NCBI GenBank assembly: GCA_046735265.1
Contig: JBKPSZ010000258.1
Location: forward strand, 1 to 51,527
Origin: Acidobacteriota bacterium
GTDB taxonomy: Bacteria; Acidobacteriota; Thermoanaerobaculia; UBA5066; Gp7-AA6
DNA length: 51,527 nt
Reading direction: 5' to 3'
Shown: piece after piece, positions 6,905-19,066 of the stretch
Numbering within the stretch: position 1 is the first letter of the stretch
How the letters are laid out: each line of letters starts with the position of its first letter
Translations under genes and position numbers: made by a program
The notes under the pieces: generated by a model
The model's database searches: none
Told to the model about the DNA's origin: nothing
Seen by the model: only the letters and a program-made list of their open reading frames with translations

Positions 6905-7725
6905 GCGCGCGCCTCGCGCCAGAAGCGCTCGAGAAGATTGCCGCAGACGCGGCGCCGGTAGTCCGCCGTGGACCGCAGGTCGTCGATCGGCGCGATCTCG
7001 GAGAGGAGTGCCTCGCGCGCTTCCGCGAGCGAGCCGCCCGAGGAGAGAAGGCTCTCGGTTCGACGCGCGCGGATCACCGTGGGCGCGACGCTCCCGACCG
7101 CGATCCGCACCGAGGGACCGATGACCGCCGCCATGACGACTTTGGAGATGGCTTGAGCCGTGCGGGTCCCGACTTTGCGGAAGAGCTGGCGGCCGCGGAG
7201 GGGCGGGATCTCGATCGCGAGGAGAAGCTCGTCCGGCCGCATCACGCTCTTTCGATATCCGGTGTAGAAGTCCGCGAAGGCGATGCGGCGGCGTCCGCCG
7301 GCGCTCGCCAGGACGAGCCTCGCCTCCGCCGCGACGAGCACGGGGAGCGTGTCGCCCGCCGGAGACGCGTTCACGACGTTTCCGCCGATCGTCCCCCGGT
7401 TCTGGATCTGGACGCCGCCGACTTCGCGGGCCGCCGCGGCGAGCATCGGGATTCGACGACGGACGAGCGCGGAGCGCTGGAGCTCCGTGTAGGTCGTCAG
7501 CGCGCCGATCGAGAGCGTTTCTCCGCGGAGACGGATTCCGCGCAGCGCTTCGAGCGGCCAGAGGTTCAGGAAGCGCTTGTCCTTCAGCGTTCCGAAGTTC
7601 AGATTCACGTAGAGATCCGTGCATCCCGCGAGCGGCGTGAGCGGGCCTTCGTCGCGGAGCATCCGAAGGGCCTCGGGGAGCGAGCGCGGCTCGAGAAGTG
7701 TCAAGGGAGAGATGGCGCCCTTCAT
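6901..7725 (-). CDS. xanthine-dehydrogenase-family FAD-binding subunit (CoxM/XdhB-like)
   Basis: Start at MKGAISPLTLLEPRSLPEAL (ATG at 7725, ATGA overlap with the 2Fe-2S subunit stop). Has the FAD-binding PCMH-type motif ...LAGCTDLYV...NRGTIGGNVVNASPAGD... Confidence 0.85.
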   Translation of the reverse strand: MKGAISPLTLLEPRSLPEALRMLRDEGPLTPLAGCTDLYVNLNFGTLKDKRFLNLWPLEALRGIRLRGETLSIGALTTYTELQRSALVRRRIPMLAAAAREVGGVQIQNRGTIGGNVVNASPAGDTLPVLVAAEARLVLASAGGRRRIAFADFYTGYRKSVMRPDELLLAIEIPPLRGRQLFRKVGTRTAQAISKVVMAAVIGPSVRIAVGSVAPTVIRARRTESLLSSGGSLAEAREALLSEIAPIDDLRSTADYRRRVCGNLLERFWREARA

Positions 7726-8165
7726 GCCCTCGCCCTCGACCCGCGCGCCTTCCGGATCGCGCGATAGATCCCTTCGTATCCGGTGCATCGGCACAGATTG
7801 CCGGCCAGCCCGAATCGGATGTCCTCGAGGGTCGCCTTCCGCGGAAGCGCCGCCGCGGCGAGAATCATCCCGGGCGTGCAGATGCCGCACTGGGCGCCGC
7901 CCTCCGTGACGAAGGCTTTCTGGAGCGCCCCCTTCCCCTGGAGCCCTTCGATCGTCGTCACGCGGGAGTTGCGCGCCTGGGCGAAGGGAACGAGGCAGGA
8001 GTTGACCGGCTCGCCGTCCAAGAGAACGGTGCACGCGCCGCACTCCCCCTCGCCGCACCCCTCCTTCGTCCCGGTGAGCCCGCAGTCCTCGCGCAGGACG
8101 TCCAGGAGGCGCTTCATCGGGTGCGCCGCGACCTCACGGCTGCGGCCGTTGACCGTGAGCTTCAC
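7722..8165 (-). CDS. xanthine-dehydrogenase-family (2Fe-2S)-binding small subunit
   Basis: 147 aa. Has the Cys clusters CGEGECGACTV and ...QCGICTPGM...NLCRCTGY. Confidence 0.9.
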   Translation of the reverse strand: MKLTVNGRSREVAAHPMKRLLDVLREDCGLTGTKEGCGEGECGACTVLLDGEPVNSCLVPFAQARNSRVTTIEGLQGKGALQKAFVTEGGAQCGICTPGMILAAAALPRKATLEDIRFGLAGNLCRCTGYEGIYRAIRKARGSRARA

Positions 8166-10300: not shown

Positions 10301-11415
10301 GAGGACTTGGAGCCTACCGCTTCCGACTCGTAGCCGCCGTGGTAGCCGGACGCCTCGGGGCGCTTGATCTGCGAGTGCGGCACGATCCGGTCGCGGCGCA
10401 GTCCCCGGAAGTCGTCGAGGGTCTTCCAGCCGCGGTGGGCGTTCTTCTCGAGGAACTCGGTCATTCCGTTTCGAAGCTCGCGGACGACGTTCGGTCCGAC
10501 CGCGTGATCGAGCATGGCCGCGGTGCAGACCTGGACGGTGCCGCAGCCGAGCAGGAAGTAATTCAGGGCGTGGGCGAAATTCGAGATGCCTCCGATGCCC
10601 GAGAAGCTGCGGTCCGGAAGAGCCGCGGTCATCTGCGACATCTTGGCGAGCGAGAGCGGGAGGATCGCGGGTCCGCCGAGGCCGCCCATCGCCGTCAGGC
10701 CCTCGACGTTCATCTCGAACTCGAGCGTCTCGGCGTCGATGAGCGTGAGCGACGTGAAGGTGTTCGAGGAGGAGATCGCGTCCGCCCCGCCGAGGAACGC
10801 GCCGCGCGCCTCGACGACGATGTCCGTCGTGGAAGGCGTCAGCTTCGCCCAGATCGGGATCCGCGAAACCTCGCGCACGACGTTCGTCACGATCGAGATC
10901 TGCTGCTGGTCCTTCCCGATGTTCGACCCCATGTCCTTGCGGTCCATGTGTGGGCAGGAGAGGTTCAATTCGAGCGCGTCCACGCCCTCGTCCTGACAGG
11001 CCTTCGCCAGCGTCTGCCAGTGGCGCATTTCTTCGTCGGACCCCGAACCCGCCATGATCGAGGCGACGAGCCTCTTCGTCGGGTGAGCCTTCTTGATACG
11101 CGAGAGACGGCCGATCCACCAGTCGAGGGGCTTGTCCGAGATGAGCTCCCAGTTCCACGAGGAATGGAGCGCGGCGCCCGGCCGCTTCTTCATGGAGAGT
11201 TGCGGCGAGTCCGCATCGGCCCGAAGGAAGTTCGTCTTCGGCCCCTTGACGTTGACGACCGGGTGGAGACCGATCGTCTTCGTGACGACCCCACCCCAGC
11301 CCGCTTCGAAGGCCCGCAGGATGTTCGATTCCGACTCCGTCGGGGGAGCCGACGAGAGGAGAAACGGGTTCTCGAATCGGAGCCCGGTGAAGACGGTCGA
11401 GAGGTCGGTGCTCAT
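10297..11415 (-). CDS. preA: dihydropyrimidine-dehydrogenase PreA-like / class-1 dihydroorotate-dehydrogenase-family flavoprotein, without a C-terminal Fe-S domain
   Basis: 372 aa. Contains ...FENPFLLSSAPPT..., ...LELNLSCPHM... (catalytic Cys loop) and ...SGIGGISN... No CxxCxxCxxxC cluster motif occurs anywhere in the protein. Confidence 0.82.
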   Translation of the reverse strand: MSTDLSTVFTGLRFENPFLLSSAPPTESESNILRAFEAGWGGVVTKTIGLHPVVNVKGPKTNFLRADADSPQLSMKKRPGAALHSSWNWELISDKPLDWWIGRLSRIKKAHPTKRLVASIMAGSGSDEEMRHWQTLAKACQDEGVDALELNLSCPHMDRKDMGSNIGKDQQQISIVTNVVREVSRIPIWAKLTPSTTDIVVEARGAFLGGADAISSSNTFTSLTLIDAETLEFEMNVEGLTAMGGLGGPAILPLSLAKMSQMTAALPDRSFSGIGGISNFAHALNYFLLGCGTVQVCTAAMLDHAVGPNVVRELRNGMTEFLEKNAHRGWKTLDDFRGLRRDRIVPHSQIKRPEASGYHGGYESEAVGSKSS

Positions 11416-11498
11416 GGTTCAGTTCCCGTTGGCGGCCCGGCACGATTCTACGCTCGTGCGGCGCTCTCCGCGGTCTCGGACCCCTCCGAATCGGCCGC

Positions 11499-12026
11499 TC
11501 AGGCGGTGTCCGAAAGAAAGGCGGCCCAGTTGTCGGGAAGGCGGGAGATTCCGGCGACCTCTCGCAGCCGATCGGACGTGAGGGGAACGACCTTGAACTC
11601 GGCGTCCACGCAGAGGGCCCCATCCGTCCGCCGCGCTTCGATGTGAACGACGAGCGGATCCGAAGCGCCGCCCCGCTGCTTCACACGGCCGAGGAGAGTG
11701 ATCGGCAGATCCGTCGGCGCAGGCTTGTGGTACGTCGCGGTCGCCGAACGGAGCAGCCACGCCGCGCCGCGATTCGGGCCGAGCAGCGTCGCAACCCACG
11801 TGGAGAGGCAGTCCATGGCGGTGTAGATCGCGCCGCCGTGGGTGATGCCGGGAAATCCGGCCATGTGGTCGGTCGGTACGAAGCGGGCACGGAGATAGGA
11901 GTCGTCGTTCGAGTCACGGTGGATCTCGATCCGAAGCCCGTGAGAGTTCTCCAGGCCGCATCCGAAGCAGGTGTTGTCCGCGAGCAGATCGCGATTGACG
12001 AGAGAAGTCACGGAAGGTCCCTCCAT
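11499..12026 (-). CDS. PaaI-family (hotdog-fold) thioesterase
   Basis: Start at MEGPSVTSLV (ATG at 12026). Has ...CFGCGLENSHGLRI... and ...GITHGGAIYTAMD... The upstream part of track ORF 11499..12305 is rejected. Confidence 0.75.
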   Translation of the reverse strand: MEGPSVTSLVNRDLLADNTCFGCGLENSHGLRIEIHRDSNDDSYLRARFVPTDHMAGFPGITHGGAIYTAMDCLSTWVATLLGPNRGAAWLLRSATATYHKPAPTDLPITLLGRVKQRGGASDPLVVHIEARRTDGALCVDAEFKVVPLTSDRLREVAGISRLPDNWAAFLSDTA

Positions 12027-12045
12027 TCGGATGGATGCCGGCGCG

Positions 12046-12456
12046 TCAGAAGAATCCGCGGAGGAAGGCTGCCGCTTTCTCCGAGATGCCGGCGATCTTG
12101 TTCGTCGCCTGACGATAGAACTTGAAGTTGAGCTCGGTCTCGGGTCGGCCGTCGTTCCAGTCGGAAAAGGGCTTGAGCTCCGTGCGCCCGAGGCGCCGCT
12201 TCGCGGCCCCCGTGCGTCGGACGGTGATGCTGACGCGCGGCGTCTGCCGGGCAATCCCGCTCTTCTTTGGGGTCGCTCTGGCCGTCGTGACGACGCCGCT
12301 CGCAATGAGTCCCGGTCCTCCTTCGTTCTCGCTCGCCAAGACGAAGATCGTGTCGCCCTTGGTGATGCGCCTGCCGCCGTACATCGTCTTCTGCGCGGGG
12401 AACGCGAACGTCTTCGCGCGCGGGTCGCGAACCTCGGCTTTGATCACGAACATCAT
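12046..12456 (-). CDS. hypothetical protein (136 aa)
   Basis: Coding-like codon bias. ATGA overlap with the RidA stop. No family recognised. Confidence 0.5.
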   Translation of the reverse strand: MMFVIKAEVRDPRAKTFAFPAQKTMYGGRRITKGDTIFVLASENEGGPGLIASGVVTTARATPKKSGIARQTPRVSITVRRTGAAKRRLGRTELKPFSDWNDGRPETELNFKFYRQATNKIAGISEKAAAFLRGFF

Positions 12457-12890
12457 TTTTCGCGAGCGTCAGCGCCCGTCACCGGTGTCGCAATGGCGAG
12501 CGCTTCCACTTCCACCAGAAATTCGGGCCTTCCGAGCGCCTGGACGCCGACGAGCGTACATGCCGGCAGAGATGGACCGTCGAAATGGCGCTGCACGGCG
12601 CTCCGGATCGCACCGATTTTTCCCTGCTCGTAACCGACCACGTAAATCGTGAGCTTCGCCACGTCTCTCGCCGAGCAGTCTGCGGCGGAAATCGCCCGGA
12701 TCAGGTTGACAAACGCCTGCTCGACTTGCGCTTCGAAGCTGCCGTCGCCCACCAGGGCCTCATGCGCGTCCACGCCGACCTGGCCCGACGTGACCACGAT
12801 CCGAAGCGGCGACCCCTCCGTCGCGACGACCTGCGAAAACAGAGTGCTCCAGTCCGGAAGCTCCGGCGGATTGAGATGCGTCCGTTTCAC
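12453..12890 (-). CDS. RidA/YjgF-family reactive-intermediate deaminase
   Basis: GTG start at 12890 (VKRTHLNPPELP...), in a GTGA overlap with the upstream VOC gene. Contains ...IVVTSGQVGVD... and ...LTIYVV... Confidence 0.82.
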   Translation of the reverse strand: MKRTHLNPPELPDWSTLFSQVVATEGSPLRIVVTSGQVGVDAHEALVGDGSFEAQVEQAFVNLIRAISAADCSARDVAKLTIYVVGYEQGKIGAIRSAVQRHFDGPSLPACTLVGVQALGRPEFLVEVEALAIATPVTGADAREK

Positions 12891-13261
12891 GGGGCGGCTT
12901 CGGAGAAACACAGGATGTAGCCGTCGGGATCCTCGACGTAGAAATCGCGCGTGCCCCAGGGCCTCTGCTTGAGCGGTCTCGTGATGGGCGCTCCGCGGCC
13001 GACGAGCTCGTCGTGCAACTCCCCGACCCCGGAGACGGCCAGATACGCGTCGAGATGCTCGCCCGACCTGCGGTGGGCGCGCTCGGCGTCGAGCTTGGGC
13101 GCGCACTTCAAGTGGATGACGGCGCGATCGCGGGAGACGCTGGCGTAGAAGCTTTCGTAGACGAAGTCGCGCGAGAAACCGAGGCGCTGTTCGTAGAAGG
13201 CCAGGGAGTCATCCAGTTTGTCGACGAGGAATTGAGGAACCGCAGCGGTGATCGAAGCCAT
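12887..13261 (-). CDS. VOC-family (glyoxalase/bleomycin-resistance fold) protein
   Basis: 124 aa. Contains ...SLAFYEQRLGF... and ...FYVEDPDGYILCF... Confidence 0.8.
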   Translation of the reverse strand: MASITAAVPQFLVDKLDDSLAFYEQRLGFSRDFVYESFYASVSRDRAVIHLKCAPKLDAERAHRRSGEHLDAYLAVSGVGELHDELVGRGAPITRPLKQRPWGTRDFYVEDPDGYILCFSEAAP

Positions 13262-13467
13262 GAGACACCTCCTGGCGGTTTAGCCGACGCTCCCGGAGCG
13301 AGTCCGCTACACGCGCGTGTTCGGCGGCCGACGAGTTGTTCCCGCCAAATGTTAGACCGGGTCCGTCACGCTCCCTCGGGGAGCCACAGGACTGCCGAAC
13401 TCGGGTTCGGGTACGCCCATCATGTTCCCCTTGCGCTACCAGGATGCACGCCTGTGAAGACGCAACC

Positions 13468-13953
13468 TCAACCCCGGCGCGCCGCCTCGATCGCAGCGAT
13501 GTCGATCTTCTTCATCTGCATCATCGCATCGAAGGCGCGCTTGGCGGCTGCAGGATCGGGATCGGTGATCGCTTTCGTCAGAGCCAGAGGCGTAATCTGC
13601 CACGACACGCCCCATTTATCTTTGCACCAGCCGCAAGCACTCTCCTCGCCGCCGTTGCCGACGATTGCGTTCCAGTAGCGATCCGTTTCGGCTTGGTCGG
13701 CGGTTGCGACCTGAAACGAGAACGCTTCGTTGTGCTTGAACGTGGGTCCACCATTGAGCCCGAGGCAAGAAACGCCCATGACGGAGAAATCGACCGTCAG
13801 CACATCTCCTTTCTTCCCGGACGGAAAGTCGCCCGGGGCGCGATGCACGGCGCCGACGGATGAATCCGGAAACGTCCGGGCGTAAAAGCGCGCCGCGTCC
13901 TCGGCGTCGCGGTCGTACCAGAGGCAAATCGTGTTCTTCGCTGGCTTCGTCAT
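13468..13953 (-). CDS. VOC-family protein, PhnB / 3-demethylubiquinone-9 3-methyltransferase-domain type
   Basis: Start at MTKPAKNTICLWYD (ATG at 13953, GGAG 7 nt upstream). Contains ...CGWCKDKWGVSWQI... Confidence 0.8.
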   Translation of the reverse strand: MTKPAKNTICLWYDRDAEDAARFYARTFPDSSVGAVHRAPGDFPSGKKGDVLTVDFSVMGVSCLGLNGGPTFKHNEAFSFQVATADQAETDRYWNAIVGNGGEESACGWCKDKWGVSWQITPLALTKAITDPDPAAAKRAFDAMMQMKKIDIAAIEAARRG

Positions 13954-14301
13954 GTCACTTCTCCATCGTTGTGAGCCGCCTGGAACCGGAGTAACGCCGT
14001 AGGTCACAGTCGAAGGCACTGGCTCTGCCAACATTTCCGCGTTAACCGGGGCAAGATCCGTACCATTTCCGCCGCTCAGCCGCCTGACGTTCGCGTTCCG
14101 CCGCGAACGAATCGAATCCCATGTGAGACGCGCCGCGATCGTGTTGAGGGGTACATCGCGGACCTGCTGGCTGCCGCGCGCGGCGAGCAGCTTCCCGGCG
14201 CAAGAGCTAGTCCGACCGCCACGGTCGCTCAGGATCGACGGTTGGGAGGGCGCCTCAGCGGAGGACTCCCCGATGGGACCGGCGACGGCGTCGTCAAACC
14301 C

Positions 14302-14973
14302 CTAGCCCTCGCGCTTCATCCGCTCCCGGCGGGCGACCTCGCGATCGCTCGGTGAATCGAGGGCGGTGTCGCCAATCTTGATAGCACCCTCTCGCTCGTA
14401 ATGGCCGACGATCAGGCCATTTGGAGAGACGCGGGACCTCGTCAGCTTGAACGAATGCGGCGCCGATCCGTCGGCGAAGAGCTTCTTGCCGCTGCCCAGC
14501 AGGACCGGCACGGTGAAGATGCTCATCGCGTCGACCAGATCATTGGCGAGCAACGCGTGGACGAGTTCGGTGCTGCCCTGGGTGACGAGGTTCGGGCCGT
14601 CTTCCTGCTTCAGGCGCTTCACGTCGGCGATGTCGCGCAGGAGCACGGAACCCGCCCAGCTCGTATCGACCTGGCCCGAGCGCGAAACCGCGTACTTCTT
14701 GATGTCGTTGAACAGCCTGGCGATGCCGCCATAGTCAGCGTCTTCGTCGTAGTAGGGCCAGTACCCGGCAAAAATCTCGTAGGTCTTGCGGCCGAGCAGC
14801 AGATCGAACTTCTCCTTGAAAACGCGATCGATCTCTTCGCCGAACGCTGGATCGAAATAGGGCATCGCCCAGCCGCCGAACCTGAAGCCCTTGGTCGGAT
14901 CCTCGGTCGGCCCCCCGGGCGCTTGCATGACGCCATCGATCGAAACCTGGGCGCCGACGATGATCTTCCGCAT
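14302..14973 (-). CDS. dihydrofolate-reductase-family (RibD C-terminal domain) protein
   Basis: 223 aa. Contains MRKIIVGAQVSIDGVM... and ...LLGRKTYEIFAGYWP... Confidence 0.83.
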   Translation of the reverse strand: MRKIIVGAQVSIDGVMQAPGGPTEDPTKGFRFGGWAMPYFDPAFGEEIDRVFKEKFDLLLGRKTYEIFAGYWPYYDEDADYGGIARLFNDIKKYAVSRSGQVDTSWAGSVLLRDIADVKRLKQEDGPNLVTQGSTELVHALLANDLVDAMSIFTVPVLLGSGKKLFADGSAPHSFKLTRSRVSPNGLIVGHYEREGAIKIGDTALDSPSDREVARRERMKREG

Positions 14974-15111
14974 GGGTCACTCCTTGTTCGAAACCAGGAC
15001 GAGCCGCCCGCTTCTGATCCGACACGTTCTCGTTGTCGTCTTGGCGAGCGGTGCGGTTCAAGCGGTGCGCCAGCTAGCCCGAGCGGCCGAATCGGCTAAC
15101 GAGCCCGATGG

Positions 15112-15660
15112 CTACCTTCTCGGCTCGTACCGCATTGCCACCGCCCCCGAGCCGAACTCCAGCCGACCCACGAGCTTCAAGTCGACATGCTTCGACAGCC
15201 CCGCGAACAACGTCGGCCCGTGGCCCACGATCCTGGGCTGCACCACGAACTCGTATTCGTCGATCAATCCCAGCTCCGCCAAAGCCAGGGGGAGCTTCAC
15301 GCCTCCCGTAAACAATCCTTTCCCCGGCTCTTGTTTGAGCTTCTGAACGGCTCTCCCCAGGTCCCCGCGCACGAGCTCCGCGTTCCAATCGACCCGGTCC
15401 AGGGTGCTCGACACGACGTACTTCTTTTTCGCATCGATCGTCCGGGCGAACGGTTCCGTCCAATCGGGCCTCACTCCCTCCGGCGCCGGCCGCCGCCACC
15501 CCGCCTCCATCATTTCGTAGGTCACCCGGCCAAAGAGGAGGGCATCGGCCCGTTCGATGTTCTCAACCGCGTGGCGATGTATCTCTTCGTCTGCGAAATT
15601 CAGACGATGATCGCAGCACCCGTCCAACGTGACGTTGATGGAATACCGAAGCGGTCGCAT
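15112..15660 (-). CDS. dihydrofolate-reductase-family (RibD C-terminal domain) protein, second copy
   Basis: 182 aa. Contains ...INVTLDGC..., ...LFGRVTYEMM... and ...IDEYEFVVQPRIVG... Confidence 0.83.
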   Translation of the reverse strand: MRPLRYSINVTLDGCCDHRLNFADEEIHRHAVENIERADALLFGRVTYEMMEAGWRRPAPEGVRPDWTEPFARTIDAKKKYVVSSTLDRVDWNAELVRGDLGRAVQKLKQEPGKGLFTGGVKLPLALAELGLIDEYEFVVQPRIVGHGPTLFAGLSKHVDLKLVGRLEFGSGAVAMRYEPRR

Positions 15661-15689
15661 TACGTAAGAATACCGATCGCCAGAGGGCA

Positions 15690-15765
15690 GCCCAACGAGC
15701 TGCCGTTCAGCGGCGGGCGACCAAGCGAAGCGCGGGAGCGAGTCCGCTGCAACGGCATATTAGAC
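15690..15765 (-). repeat. best attC-like imperfect palindrome (76 nt)
   Basis: Reverse strand: GTCTAAT-AT-GCCGTT[G]CAGCGG-(28 nt)-CCGCTGAACGGC-AGCTC-GTTGGGC. The outer 7-nt boxes pair with G:T wobbles, followed by an unpaired spacer. The 12-bp inner stem has one extrahelical G. Confidence 0.5.
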
Positions 15766-15918
15766 GGCACCTGGTCTACTACCGTTCTCGCCTCGAGTCG
15801 TCGCGCGCCGCTGCCGGTCTTTGCGCCGGTCGTGAATTGGAACCCAGATCATCAGCCCGACCAGGGCCAGGAACAAGGCCACCGCCTGAAGCCACGGAGG
15901 ATCTGTGAGGTGAATCAT
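15760..15918 (-). CDS. possible 52-aa single-TM micro-protein (not in the ORF track)
   Basis: Own translation: MIHLTDPPWLQAVALFLALVGLMIWVPIHDRRKDRQRRATTRGENGSRPGAV*. Its stop codon lies inside the GTCTAAT box of the attC-like site. No RBS check was possible, so this is weak. Confidence 0.25.
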   Translation of the reverse strand: MIHLTDPPWLQAVALFLALVGLMIWVPIHDRRKDRQRRATTRGENGSRPGAV

Positions 15919-15983
15919 GAGGGGCTCGGCCGCTGCGCCTCCCCCACGCTCGGAAGTCGTCGCAGTAGCCAGCCGACAGTCAA

Positions 15984-16409
15984 TCAGGCGACGCCGAGCT
16001 TCCCGCGCTCCCCTTCACGGGGCGCCGCGAGCTCCTCGGGCGTCATGAACTCGGCCAGATCCGCCGCCTCGTAGAACGGCCGGATCTCGATCTCGCTCCG
16101 GCCCGGCATCGGATTGGGGGAGCGCTTCGCCCAGGCCAGCGCCTCGTCCATGTCCTTGACCTCCCAGATCGAGAAGCCGGCGATCAGTTCGCGGGTCTCG
16201 GCGAACGGCCCGTCGATGACCGTGCGGCCGGGACCGTCACAAACGACGCGCTTGGCCTGGGCGCTGTTTTTCAGGCCGGCGGCGGCCACGAAGACCCCGG
16301 CCTTGACCAGCTCCTCGGTGAACCGGTCCATCGCCGCGAACGCCTCGGCCGTGGGGGGCGCCGCCTTTTCGCTGCTCTCAGTGGCTTTCGCGAACACCAT
16401 AACCCGCAT
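15984..16409 (-). CDS. YciI-family protein
   Basis: Start at MRVMVFAKATE (ATG at 16409, AAGGAGG upstream). Contains ...DGPFAETRELIAGFSIWEV... Confidence 0.83.
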   Translation of the reverse strand: MRVMVFAKATESSEKAAPPTAEAFAAMDRFTEELVKAGVFVAAAGLKNSAQAKRVVCDGPGRTVIDGPFAETRELIAGFSIWEVKDMDEALAWAKRSPNPMPGRSEIEIRPFYEAADLAEFMTPEELAAPREGERGKLGVA

Positions 16410-16613
16410 CGTCAACCTCCTTGTTTGAGCCGGCCCTTTTGGCCTCTCATCGGGACGACGAACGAGCTTGTCGGAAATCGACATCCTTCTGCAAATCTCG
16501 CTCGAAGTTCGAACCGCGCGGCATCGCGGACAGCTGTTACGGTCTGAGGTTTGAACTCAGCCGCCTGCGAAGGTTGGCGAAGCCAGCCGTACCGGGTCGG
16601 CGGGAGCGAGGGG

Positions 16614-17033
16614 TTAGGCCTCGTTGCCGCGTGGCGCCTGAGCGGAAGCGCGTTCGACCAGGAGATACCGTCGACACAGCAGTTTGACCGCCGGTGCGAG
16701 TTTGCTGTCGTCGCGGTAGTCGAGCCATCGGACCTCGCTGATCTCGCCGTGTGCACGAGGATCACCCGCCCATTGCGCAGAGAAACAAATGAGCTCGACG
16801 TCGCCCGGATGACCGTACGCGGGGCCGACAACGGAATAGAGGTAGCGGATCGACTGTGGCGACAGATCGATGCCGAGCTCTTCCGTGAGTTCACGCTGGA
16901 GCGCTGATTCTGCGGACTCATGCTGCCCGATCTTGCCCCCTGGCAGATACCAGTGCTCATTCTGCCGAACGCGAACCAGCAGCAGCTTGCTGCCCCGCGT
17001 ATCCACGAGGCAAGCGCATCGAATTGGCGACAT
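16614..17033 (-). CDS. NUDIX hydrolase
   Basis: 139 aa. Has the Nudix box GGKIGQHESAESALQRELTEELG. Confidence 0.85.
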   Translation of the reverse strand: MSPIRCACLVDTRGSKLLLVRVRQNEHWYLPGGKIGQHESAESALQRELTEELGIDLSPQSIRYLYSVVGPAYGHPGDVELICFSAQWAGDPRAHGEISEVRWLDYRDDSKLAPAVKLLCRRYLLVERASAQAPRGNEA

Positions 17034-17098
17034 AGGACGAAGTGCGAAGAATGAAGCCGAATCCCCGGTTCAGCGGCGGTGCGTCGCGCCGTCCGCTC

Positions 17099-17501
17099 TT
17101 ACCCGACTCTCATGACGTTCTGCAGCTTCGCCGTGTCCACGTACTGCTGGAACCTGGTCACCTTGCCGTCTCGGATGTCGAAGACGTGGCAGACCTGTGT
17201 GTCCATGGTCTTCGCGGTCGGCTTGTACTTCCCGGTGTAGCGGCCCTCAACGGATGACGCTGCCGCCCGCATTGTGAAATGACTTCGGATGGACGGAGAA
17301 GCCGTCCCACTCCGCGCCCAATCTCATGAACAGATTGTTCAGGACGGCGTCCGGTCCGACCCAGGCCTCGCCGCTGGGCATGTACGGGTTGCTCTCCGCC
17401 TGATACCAGTGGATGTCCGGGCTCATTGCACCAAGAACGGCCGGGATGTCTCCACGGCCAAACGCATCGTAGAGATTCTTCACAAGGCTTACGTTGTCCA
17501 T
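17099..17501 (-). pseudogene. SnoaL/NTF2-like protein gene disrupted by a 1-nt frameshift
   Basis: MDNVSLVKNLYDAFGRGDIPAVLGAM...FHNAGGSVI runs into a stop at 17247-17249. The adjacent frame continues as VEGRYTGKYKPTAKTMDTQVCHVFDIRDGKVTRFQQYVDTAKLQNVMRVG*, the expected C-terminal half. Total span is 403 nt (3n+1). Confidence 0.7.
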
Positions 17502-17634
17502 GCTTCTCTCCTCGGGTCTTGCGTTTCTGCCAACGGGTGATGGGCGCCTGCCGCGCAGCGAGGGCCAGGGCCCAAAGACACTTCGAGCTGTCGAATTTCC
17601 CGTATCCCCCAATTGTCGGGCCGGGCGCGGAGAC

Positions 17635-18969
17635 CTACCTCGCCCCGGCCGCTTCGAAAGACTCCCGCAGGATCCCGAGCGCCTCTTCGATCTCGGAGGA
17701 GCCGACGGTCAGGGCCGGCGCGATTCGGAAGGCATTGCCCTCGAGCCCGCCCTTTCCGATCAGGAGCCCGCGTTTCTTCGCCTCCTCGAAGACTCGGTTG
17801 GTCAGCGGCTTGTTCGGCGTGCGATCCCTCGCGGTCTCGTCTTCCACCAGCTCGACCGCTTGCATGAGCCCCATCCCGCGGACGTCCCCAACGTTTTTCG
17901 GGAAGCGGCGCTGGAGATCTTCGAGGCCGGCGCGCAGCAGGCGTCCCATCTTCTCGGCGTTGCCGGCGAGATTTTCTTCTTCGATGATCCGGATCGTGGC
18001 GTTGGCGGCGGCGCAGGAGACCGGGTTGCCGCCGAAAGTCGAGATCGTGAGCGCCTTCAACGACGCCGCGATCGCCGGGGTCGCGATCGTGACGCCGAGC
18101 GGCAGGCCGTTGGCGATCCCCTTCGCCATCGTCATGATGTCGGGTTGAACGCCCCAGTGCTGGATGCCCCACATCCTCCCGCCCGTCCGGCCGAAGCCGG
18201 TCTGCACCTCGTCGCAGAGGAAGAGCCCTCCGTACTTCTTCACGATGCCGACCGCGATCTCGAAGTACTCGGGGGGAGGCGTGATGAAGCCACCGACTCC
18301 CTGGATCGGCTCGGCCAGGAATCCGGCGATCCGCCCGGTCGTCGTCGTCCGGATCAGCTCCTCGATGTCCTTGGCGCACGCGATCCCGCAGGACGGATAC
18401 GTCAGGTGGAGCGGGCAGCGGTAGCAGTAGGGCGAGACGGCGTGCTTGACGCCGGCGACCTGGGTCGGCAGCGCCCGCCAGGTCGACTGCGCGGTCAGCG
18501 ACTGAGCGAGCATCGACCGCCCCGAGTAGCCGTGTCGCAGCGCCACGATCTCGGTCGAGCCGGTCGAGAGCTGCGCCATCATGACGGCGGTCTCATCCGC
18601 TTCGGTGCCCGACGCGGTGAAGTACGACTGCTTGAGGTCCCCCGGCGCGAGACGCGCGAGCCGCTCGGCGAGCTCCACGATGGGAAGCGTCGGATAGAGC
18701 GTCGAGACGTGGGAGAAACGCTCGAGCTGCAGGACGATCGCCGCATTGACTCGGTCGTCGGCGTGTCCGATCGAGACGGTCAGGATCCCGCCGAAGAAGT
18801 CGAGGTACTCGTTGCCGTCGGCGTCGCGGATCCGCAGGCCCTTCCCCTCGGTCAGAACGACCGGGTCCTGGTAGTACTGGATCGTGGCGGGGAAGAGGTA
18901 CTCCTTGTGCTTCGCGCGGACGTCGCGTGTCCGGTCGGTTGTCGGCTCTTGAGTTTTTGTCGTGCTCAT
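17635..18969 (-). CDS. class-III (AGXT2/beta-alanine-pyruvate type) aminotransferase
   Basis: Start at MSTTKTQE (ATG at 18969, GGGAGGAG upstream). Contains ...FASGTEADE-like SGTEADETAV and ...DEVQTGFGRTG..., plus a PLP Lys in ...TMAKGIANG. Confidence 0.88.
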   Translation of the reverse strand: MSTTKTQEPTTDRTRDVRAKHKEYLFPATIQYYQDPVVLTEGKGLRIRDADGNEYLDFFGGILTVSIGHADDRVNAAIVLQLERFSHVSTLYPTLPIVELAERLARLAPGDLKQSYFTASGTEADETAVMMAQLSTGSTEIVALRHGYSGRSMLAQSLTAQSTWRALPTQVAGVKHAVSPYCYRCPLHLTYPSCGIACAKDIEELIRTTTTGRIAGFLAEPIQGVGGFITPPPEYFEIAVGIVKKYGGLFLCDEVQTGFGRTGGRMWGIQHWGVQPDIMTMAKGIANGLPLGVTIATPAIAASLKALTISTFGGNPVSCAAANATIRIIEEENLAGNAEKMGRLLRAGLEDLQRRFPKNVGDVRGMGLMQAVELVEDETARDRTPNKPLTNRVFEEAKKRGLLIGKGGLEGNAFRIAPALTVGSSEIEEALGILRESFEAAGAR

Positions 18970-18978
18970 GGCTCCTCC

Positions 18979-19066
18979 CGCGGGCGGGGACGAGCCCCGC
19001 ACCTACAAACCTGAGCGGGGACGACCCCGCCCCTGCAAACCCGGGCGGGGACGGCCCGCCCGCTAC
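18979..19066. repeat. 2.8 tandem copies of a ~30-nt GC-hairpin (REP-like) unit
   Basis: The units are cgggcggggacgagccccgcacctacaaacc, tgagcggggacgaccccgcccctgcaaacc and cgggcggggacggcccgcccgctac. Each contains a GCGGGG-ACGA-(G)CCCCGC hairpin. The last unit overlaps the dihydropyrimidinase stop. Confidence 0.8.

Follow-up and report, generated by a model that had tools for sequence, protein, structure and literature searches.

The 51,527-nt contig JBKPSZ010000258.1 of an uncultured soil Acidobacteriota bacterium (GCA_046735265.1), which is called the window in the following and to which all coordinates refer unless another contig is named, carries an island of small co-oriented genes between an aminotransferase gene and preA (11416-17634). 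We interpret this island, with a probability of about 0.86, as a decaying CALIN, meaning integron cassettes without an integrase, away from any integron platform and inside a pyrimidine-breakdown operon. CALIN and SALIN are clusters of attC sites and single attC sites, respectively, that lack an integron-integrase (Cury et al. 2016, PMC4889954; IntegronFinder 2.0, PMC9024848). Each cassette appears to have originally consisted of a promoterless open reading frame (ORF) and an attC site of a mostly 76-nt Acidobacteria-type family. One attC is nearly intact, one lacks its R' box, two are eroded, with indels distinguishing the strains, and at least two appear to be gone. An earlier note, made from the letters of the window alone, had placed a CALIN-like array at 13262-17612. 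The island is larger than that and additionally includes a RidA gene, a gene for a 136-aa protein and a 4HBT thioesterase gene. The coordinates of all features are listed in Table 1.

The evidence centres on the spacer in front of the RibD_C gene that we call DHFR2. An attC covariance test with the equivalent model R1 gave 34.4 bits (E ~5e-8) for the site at 15765-15690, which supports the CALIN-like reading. The earlier note had found a complete attC-like fold in one spacer only and degenerate forms in the others, and indeed this is the only site that is strong with R1. It is composed of R'' GTCTAAT, ATG, L'' CCGTT-G-CAGCGG, a loop, L' CCGCTG-AACGG, CAGCTC and R' GTTGGGC, followed by 29 nt and the ATG of DHFR2. 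The only clear defect is AAT instead of the invariant AAC in R''. In the predicted single-stranded DNA fold, both strands of 15690-15765 form an L stem of 5+6 bp in which one base, at model position 16, is extrahelical, and the R box pairs poorly because of the AAT in R''. An integrase provided in trans might find a usable substrate in this site at most.

Supplementary Data 1 of Ghaly et al. 2021 (PMC8352920) provides Infernal models of taxon-specific attC sites. We transcribed the filter HMM (hidden Markov model) of the Acidobacteria attC model, with the consensus GCCUAAC-AacuC-GUUgAAGCg-GA...cGCUUAAc-UCGagC-GUUAGGC. As controls we used 80 of 120 metagenome stretches obtained by a consensus pattern scan, many of which are real multi-site arrays, and in the control arrays this HMM detected 250 full-length attC sites at about 18-38 bits. 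The covariance model R1 was built from 71 diverse real Acidobacteria-type sites, using their first 32 and last 34 nt and 22 base pairs. A MAFFT alignment of full-length real attC sites (A1) was dropped, as the 3' halves were misaligned, and a "mini-attC" alignment (A2) was used instead. The E-values of R1 come from a shortened calibration, and the window was searched with filters off. R1 scores 40-76 bits on the controls, and in 1.36 Mb of relatives nothing exceeded 13.1 bits. Rfam has no attC family, and the Rfam gathering scan of the window returned a single borderline match outside the island. A plain search for RYYYAAC and GTTRRRY boxes in the spacers found too few canonical boxes to be decisive.

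A likely type of donor was found in two metagenome contigs, L082 and L083, which are the contexts of a protein (P0100) that is 87% identical to the DHFR2 protein of the window. Both are large genuine arrays with 18-19 co-oriented attC sites each, mostly of 76 nt, which score 30-51 bits with R1. Their attC sites have TGCAGCGGACTCGCTCC and CGCCGCTGA in common with the site at 15765-15690, and the latter aligns with them nearly base for base. With a family HMM for L082/L083-type attC sites it reaches 41.1 bits (E = 8.5e-12). The DHFR2 cassette in L082 is bounded by attC sites, and its R' box, 29-nt leader and ATG align with those of the window. In L081, a context that is not an array, a decayed GTCAGGC is found at the same 29-nt distance from the ATG of the DHFR2 homolog. 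Based on these shared boundaries, DHFR2 appears to have entered as a cassette. The RibD_C and VOC families recur as cassettes in real arrays.

Three further sites of the island show attC architecture. The second attC of the same family lies in front of the Glyoxalase/VOC gene and comprises R'' GCCGAAC, ACGCGCGTG-T-AGCGGACTCGCTCC, a short hairpin, GGCTAAA and CCGCCAG. The family HMM covers only its 5' half (13324-13294; 17.8 bits, E = 1.6e-4 window-wide and 2e-6 within the spacers), and from there the site was traced by eye to CCGCCAG at 13272. Its R' box is replaced by the ribosome-binding site (RBS) of the VOC gene, with the ATG right after it. The decayed site after the NUDIX gene has an R1 E-value of 0.7 window-wide and 0.087 within the island. 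It contains GCCTAACCCCTCG, identical to the start of the 66-nt attC at L082:7356, and an HMM of the 66/67-nt attC subfamily gave no significant match at 16619-16542. After the SnoaL stop, R1 gives 10.3 bits at 17097-17072 (E = 1 window-wide, 0.13 within the island). Of the top five R1 matches in the window, three follow immediately on a stop codon in an island spacer, on the coding strand, and the NUDIX and SnoaL sites rank fourth and fifth. All four recognised sites are on the minus, i.e. coding, strand. Three of them begin at or within a few nucleotides of the stop codons of the 52-aa micro-ORF, NUDIX and SnoaL, and the fourth (13325-13272) begins about 140 nt after the PhnB stop.

In the remaining spacers we found only debris below significance, namely between DHFR2 and DHFR1, between DHFR1 and PhnB and at the end of the island. 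The model search of the spacer at 14974-15111 gave no match, and its attC is presumed lost. In the long spacer at 13954-14301 the attC-like fragments are CGGACTAGCTC (14214-14204), GTCAGGCGGCTGAG (14088-14075, a decayed R' followed by GGCTGAG) and CCGGTTAAC...GTTGGCA (14049-14026). R1 scores 5.5 bits there (14129-14082) and the family HMM gives E = 0.76; the fragments can be compared with GTTAGGCGGCTGAG at L082:7415. No model match was found in 11498-11416, after the last gene of the island. At the other end, the R'-like box at 17528-17534 together with the L'-R' spacer in front of it may represent the 3' end of a decayed attC, although it is not statistically significant alone. Overall, the picture suggests that the attC sites are no longer under selection.

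Erosion can be followed in a sister strain. The 1.9-kb contig L205 carries the aminotransferase, SnoaL, NUDIX and YciI genes, about 95% identical to those of the window. Its site after NUDIX (L205 1439-1514) scores 24.7 bits with R1 (E = 2e-5; E = 1e-3 with the published Acidobacteria HMM), and its site after SnoaL (L205 942-1002), with R' GTTAGGG, 15.5 bits (E = 0.013). Both count as clear attC sites in this strain. L205 has 126 nt that are missing from the window exactly at the R'-like box 17534-17528, a further 108 nt of its own together with the intact R' GTTAGGG, where the window reads ATTC--GG, and a 28-nt tandem duplication. A 2-nt indel after R'' also separates the two strains.

The island interrupts a conserved gene neighbourhood. 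The window has a GC content of about 68%, with 63-65% in the island and 66-72% in the flanks, and its closest relatives are soil metagenome-assembled genomes (MAGs) labelled Thermoanaerobaculia or Acidobacteriota. We fetched 80 related loci via the adjacent aminotransferase (17635-19002) and examined 10-kb flanks. The order dihydropyrimidinase (DHPase), aminotransferase, preA is found in 17 of the 80 relatives, including the five closest ones. In these the gap between aminotransferase and preA measures 11-955 bp, compared with 6.2 kb in the window, and none of the 80 loci has homologs of island genes in its 10-kb flanks. From both observations it follows that the island is a lineage-specific insertion into the reductive pyrimidine-catabolism cluster. 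The -10-like motif GCGTAGAAT is located 30-45 nt upstream of preA in L001, L003, L004 and L014; L002 and L005 have closely similar variants of it. This conservation in the closest relatives suggests that preA has its own promoter, which the insertion would have left intact.

The gap has received other inserts as well. L002 (11333-12287) and L003 (11333-11853) carry a VOC/glyoxalase gene unrelated to those of the island, L001 carries 452 bp (11363-11814) and L005 a 168-bp palindromic repeat of the GGACTGAGGAC type (11333-11500). No attC remnants were found in the inserts of L001-L005. As the relatives carry different inserts, all of them without attC signal, the gap appears to be a general insertion hotspot. 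The island could alternatively be an ordinary accessory-gene islet, in which small detoxification and stress genes were gathered by homologous recombination and the spacer palindromes are repetitive extragenic palindromic (REP) elements or terminator hairpins. The variability of the gap in L001, L002, L003 and L005 fits such an islet, as does the lack of a significant attC match in most island spacers and the co-occurrence of the same gene families in non-integron contexts (L081, L084, L206, L207). It would not account for a full-length attC at 34 bits, compared with at most 13 bits across 1.36 Mb of relatives, nor for a site that matches the attC family of arrays with 18-19 sites and a DHFR2 boundary shared with one of these arrays. 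Moreover, the repeated spacer words have no copy in the relatives and the terminator scan stayed at chance level. We regard the islet explanation as largely refuted and very unlikely.

These repeated words had first drawn attention to the spacers. The three exact words and three RYYYAAC-type boxes reported in the earlier note are present at the positions and in the orientation given there. Its statement that each word is expected about 0.01 times by chance in 51 kb is wrong, since the whole window contains 848 identical 12-mer pairs compared with 588 in shuffles. Word sharing is nevertheless significant in the 1.5 kb of spacers, with 5 identical 12-mer pairs where 0.2 are expected (P = 5e-4) and 15 10-mer pairs where 2.7 are expected. 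The words represent the conserved cores of the L082/L083 attC family. The first (13295-13308 and 15735-15748) is the L'' core with the adjacent conserved loop, the second (15705-15716 and 17068-17079) is L', and the third, CAGGCGGCTGAG (14075-14086 and 16556-16567), looks like a decayed R' followed by GGCTGAG, comparable to L082:7415. The earlier note had named three observations that would speak against an array: no attC-model hit, words belonging to a genome-wide REP family, and a gene order conserved across relatives. R1 detects an attC, none of the words has a copy in 1.34 Mb of relatives, within the window the word and family-HMM matches are confined to the island, and the whole block is absent from all 80 related loci.

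No integron-integrase was detected near the island, as the earlier note had stated. Pfam found no Phage_integrase domain in the 20 largest coding ORFs of the window, which encode housekeeping or catabolic functions (among them uricase, allantoinase, CN-hydrolase, IDH, glucokinase, PurD and LepA), and a six-frame scan of the window found no tyrosine-recombinase box II motif. Within at least 11 kb to one side of the island and 34 kb to the other, no integrase was found. A complete integron would have intI, attI and Pc next to the first cassette; here the array begins right after the aminotransferase stop with no integrase in the window, and attI is not recognisable by sequence. There is no room for an integron platform, because the island is directly flanked by core genes.

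This leaves the alternative of an active array, which would belong to or be serviced by a complete integron elsewhere and would still exchange cassettes at this location. The site at 15765-15690 retains R'', L'', L' and R' at the spacing of the family as well as the extrahelical base, and its score is within the 30-51 bits of L082/L083. In addition, the 126-nt L205 segment is missing from the window exactly at an R'-like box, and mobilisation of CALIN cassettes in trans is possible according to Cury et al. 2016 (PMC4889954). However, the other sites lack R' or R'', and even the best one has AAT for AAC in R'' and a poorly paired R box, with no integrase within the distances given above. Gene content and order are identical in the three assemblies, so no cassette turnover is seen between strains, which differ by indels and point decay inside the attC sites and not by exchange of whole cassettes. 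We consider ongoing exchange improbable and prefer the decaying CALIN.

The third assembly besides the window and L205 is a 28-kb JGI contig, which runs from YciI through 4HBT and preA in the same order as the window and continues into xanthine-dehydrogenase-type subunit genes. Cassette arrays are rich in repeats and often break assemblies, and the JGI contig starts just upstream of YciI. It could thus be suspected that a contig with a cassette array was misjoined to a core-genome contig of the MAG. L205 spans the junction from aminotransferase to YciI, and the JGI contig spans YciI, 4HBT, preA and beyond, which refutes such a chimera; we give it practically no weight. As the same array is present in both, it is not an assembly artefact.

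Several points weigh against a decaying CALIN. Under a stringent threshold the window has a single full attC, and by the default IntegronFinder rule of at least two attC sites it is on its own a borderline case, at best one attC (SALIN) accompanied by debris. Used by itself, the published Acidobacteria HMM assigns the spacer with 15765-15690 just 5.4 bits (E = 1.2), although this is its best match in the island; this HMM is not sensitive to the 76-nt subfamily. No attC is demonstrable for the DHFR2, DHFR1 or VOC-RidA-p136-4HBT units, and for this reason not all of them may have arrived as cassettes. The insertion junctions, whether of the attG type or other, are uninformative. For the proposed expression by read-through, a consensus promoter and terminator scan of the island is uninformative, its matches being at chance level.

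With these points taken into account, we propose the following course of events for the decaying CALIN. The cassettes would originate from a sedentary chromosomal integron pool like the L082/L083 arrays and would have been inserted into the short intergenic gap that separates the beta-alanine-type aminotransferase gene from preA in the reductive pyrimidine-catabolism operon. The likeliest route would be integrase recombination at a secondary or attG site, or the acquisition of a segment assembled beforehand. Lacking a cis-encoded integrase, the attC sites are not maintained, and the SnoaL gene is frameshifted. Read-through transcription from the host operon is probable, given the shared orientation of cassettes and operon and the presence of an RBS in several of the cassettes. 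In effect, the cassette genes would be in the course of being fixed as ordinary chromosomal genes.

The genes themselves are all located on the minus strand. Pfam confirms the families proposed in the earlier note, including the frameshifted SnoaL_2, and the spacer lengths given there (206, 348, 138, 323, 204 and 65 nt) are correct. The reading frame of SnoaL is broken by a 1-nt insertion near 17253. Removal of one C yields 133 aa that closely match the sister-strain protein, which is intact in L205 with 144 aa, so the split gene is either a pseudogene or a sequencing error. Possible micro-ORFs had also been suspected in the spacers, and the 52-aa ORF within the 323-nt spacer is independently called as a gene on the JGI contig. 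A 23-aa micro-ORF (MMGVPEPEFGSPVAPRGSVTDPV) at 13357-13428 on the minus strand ends in a GTCTAAC box. This box had been taken to open a spacer; it is present (13351-13357), but the R'' of the attC remnant is GCCGAAC (13325-13319) instead. The GTCTAAC at 13357, 25 nt upstream of that R'', could represent another eroded R'' or have arisen by chance.

The PhnB-like gene has an 83%-identical copy beside the DHFR2 homolog in L081. Glyoxalase/VOC, RidA, the 136-aa protein and 4HBT are tightly packed: the 136-aa gene overlaps the RidA stop by 4 nt and the 4HBT gene begins 19 nt downstream of it. This block may be one large terminal cassette or separate cargo. An exact-protein look-up of DHFR1 and NUDIX gave no record for either.

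Table 1. Features of the island and its attC sites in the 51,527-nt window (R1, covariance model of Acidobacteria-type attC sites).
Feature	Position	Strand	Basis and remarks
Lineage-specific island	11416-17634	-	Aminotransferase stop to preA start; about 11 small co-oriented genes
First spacer	17528-17634	-	CATCACCC, then R'-like GTTGGCA (17534-17528), 26 nt ahead of SnoaL ATG; by eye
SnoaL_2 gene, split	17099-17501	-	Pfam on both parts (17501-17247 and 17272-17099)
Decayed attC after SnoaL stop	17056-17097	-	L''/L' stem AGCGGAC...CCGCCGCTGAAC; R' decayed to ATTCGGC
NUDIX gene	16614-17033	-	Pfam, E = 3.6e-16; TAA stop within R'' box GCCTAAC; 95%-identical copy in L205
Decayed attC after NUDIX	16542-16619	-	R'' GCCTAAC; R' decayed; R1 10.8 bits, full length
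YCII-family (YciI) gene	15984-16409	-	Pfam, E = 2.5e-17; also on the JGI contig carrying P0002
Hydrophobic 52-aa micro-ORF	15760-15918	-	ORF list; TAA stop in R'' of the nearly intact attC
Nearly intact 76-nt attC	15690-15765	-	R1 34.4 bits, E = 5.3e-8, full length; only strong match in the window
RibD_C gene DHFR2, 182 aa	15112-15660	-	Pfam; 29 nt between R' and ATG
DHFR2-DHFR1 spacer	14974-15111	-	attC-like debris by eye: GTTAGCC (15100-15094), CGCTTGAACCGC (15064-15053)
RibD_C gene DHFR1	14302-14973	-	Pfam, E = 2.6e-17
DHFR1-PhnB long spacer	13954-14301	-	Weak attC-like fragments, none significant alone
3-dmu-9_3-mt / PhnB-like gene (VOC superfamily)	13468-13953	-	Pfam, E = 2e-49
Second attC of the same family, without R'	13272-13325	-	Family HMM and manual alignment to L082:11413
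Tightly packed four-gene block	11499-13261	-	Glyoxalase/VOC, RidA, 136-aa protein, 4HBT; same order on the JGI contig
Glyoxalase/VOC gene	12887-13261	-	Pfam
RidA gene	12453-12890	-	Pfam; GTGA overlap with Glyoxalase/VOC stop
Gene for 136-aa protein	12046-12456	-	No Pfam match; kept on the JGI contig
4HBT thioesterase gene	11499-12026	-	Pfam
-10-like motif GCGTAGAAT	11445-11453	-	Upstream of preA; downstream edge of the ancestral intergenic region

The DHFR2-type RibD_C protein is found both within attC arrays and in non-array contexts. Thousands of metagenome proteins share 85-90% identity with the DHFR2 protein, as do proteins named from Kitasatospora (Actinomycetota) and Bryobacteraceae (Acidobacteriota), a cross-phylum conservation that is unusually high for a small accessory enzyme. 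In L206 (5614-10478) a DHFR2 copy that belongs to the 90%-identity cluster of the window gene is part of a run of co-oriented small genes with 4HBT, Cupin_2, DUF1697, two RibD_C, Rce1-like and Glyoxalase_6 domains. The attC-like matches there are weak (10-12 bits), and this may be another decayed array.

Further observations concern the donor-type arrays. At L082 7440-7971 an ORF (about 7440-7945) is followed by only the 3' part of an attC (GCCGCCTGACCCGCCGCCC GTTAGGC), which indicates that truncated attC sites and fused cassettes also occur in bona fide arrays. Between attC sites of both arrays (L083 784-2847, L082 800-2452) there is a PhoD alkaline phosphatase gene, whose product shares 86-93% identity with proteins assigned to Steroidobacteraceae, Chthoniobacterales, Rhodocyclaceae, Eisenbacteria and Acidobacteriota; it looks like another widely exchanged and unusually large cassette. 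A 2.8-kb unit between two attC sites (L082/L083 5424-6482, minus strand) contains three reverse-oriented genes, including a fusion of an extracytoplasmic function (ECF) sigma factor with SnoaL_2 and a metallo-beta-lactamase-fold protein. No integrases were found next to the control arrays (L088, L131) or by motif in all loci, where the contigs are too short.

The borderline Rfam match outside the island is a Guanidine-II (mini-ykkC) riboswitch at 18982-19029 on the plus strand (32.1 bits with a gathering threshold of 32, E = 0.011). The aminotransferase and DHPase genes are on the other strand and no obvious gene lies downstream of the match, which is therefore probably spurious.

Stranded cassettes have been described before and are common, so the island does not define a new category. 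It is a well-resolved example from a poorly studied uncultured phylum, in which the empty site in close relatives, a donor-type array with its attC family, the erosion of attC sites between two strains and the conservation of the genes are visible together. All this favours the idea that cassettes can move out of the integron and end up as permanent genes of the chromosome, in this case within a pyrimidine-catabolism operon. Detectors that require two intact attC sites will miss such decaying arrays. Furthermore, the extreme cross-phylum conservation of RibD_C and PhoD suggests that cassette cargo of this kind is exchanged widely in soil.

A more speculative idea, to which we give clearly less credence, is that the island is a snapshot of cassette domestication. 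In that case a multi-cassette segment would have landed at an attG-like site, would be expressed by read-through and would be turning into ordinary genes while the attC sites erode and the cargo is kept under selection. The selected cargo, including RibD_C with its 85-90% identity across phyla, might counter an antifolate-like or other toxic metabolite in soil. If this were true, soil Acidobacteriota would gain permanent genes from integron cassettes to a measurable extent.

Compared with known systems, the island resembles CALIN and SALIN in its co-oriented promoterless small ORFs with attC sites on the coding strand, in its chromosomal location with no intI nearby and in cassette functions that are not related to resistance and mostly enzyme-like. 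It differs in that most attC sites are eroded, so that one (arguably two) would pass a detector, and in that the array is wedged into a conserved catabolic operon and not near insertion sequence (IS) elements or an intI pseudogene.

With the sedentary arrays of the soil Acidobacteriota type (PMC8352920; L082/L083, L085-L204) it shares the attC architecture, and with L082/L083 in particular the 76-nt family (TGCAGCGGACTCGCTCC ... CGCCGCTGA), the 87%-identical RibD_C cassette and a homologous 5' boundary. In the real arrays, attC sites follow one another at roughly 0.3-1.5 kb (at most about 2.9 kb) and score 30-76 bits with near-perfect R boxes, whereas the window has about seven gene units, one good site and no linked platform (intI, attI, Pc).

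The third comparison is with insertions at attG sites (Loot et al., bioRxiv 10.1101/2022.09.11.507474) and with the "secondary site" insertions described earlier. The window differs from these by several cassettes rather than one and by junctions that are not identifiable here, and an attG x attC event would be one possible route. Both have in common that the cassettes are located outside attI, in an intergenic region and next to a resident promoter or operon, and the cassettes of the window are oriented such that host transcription could express them.

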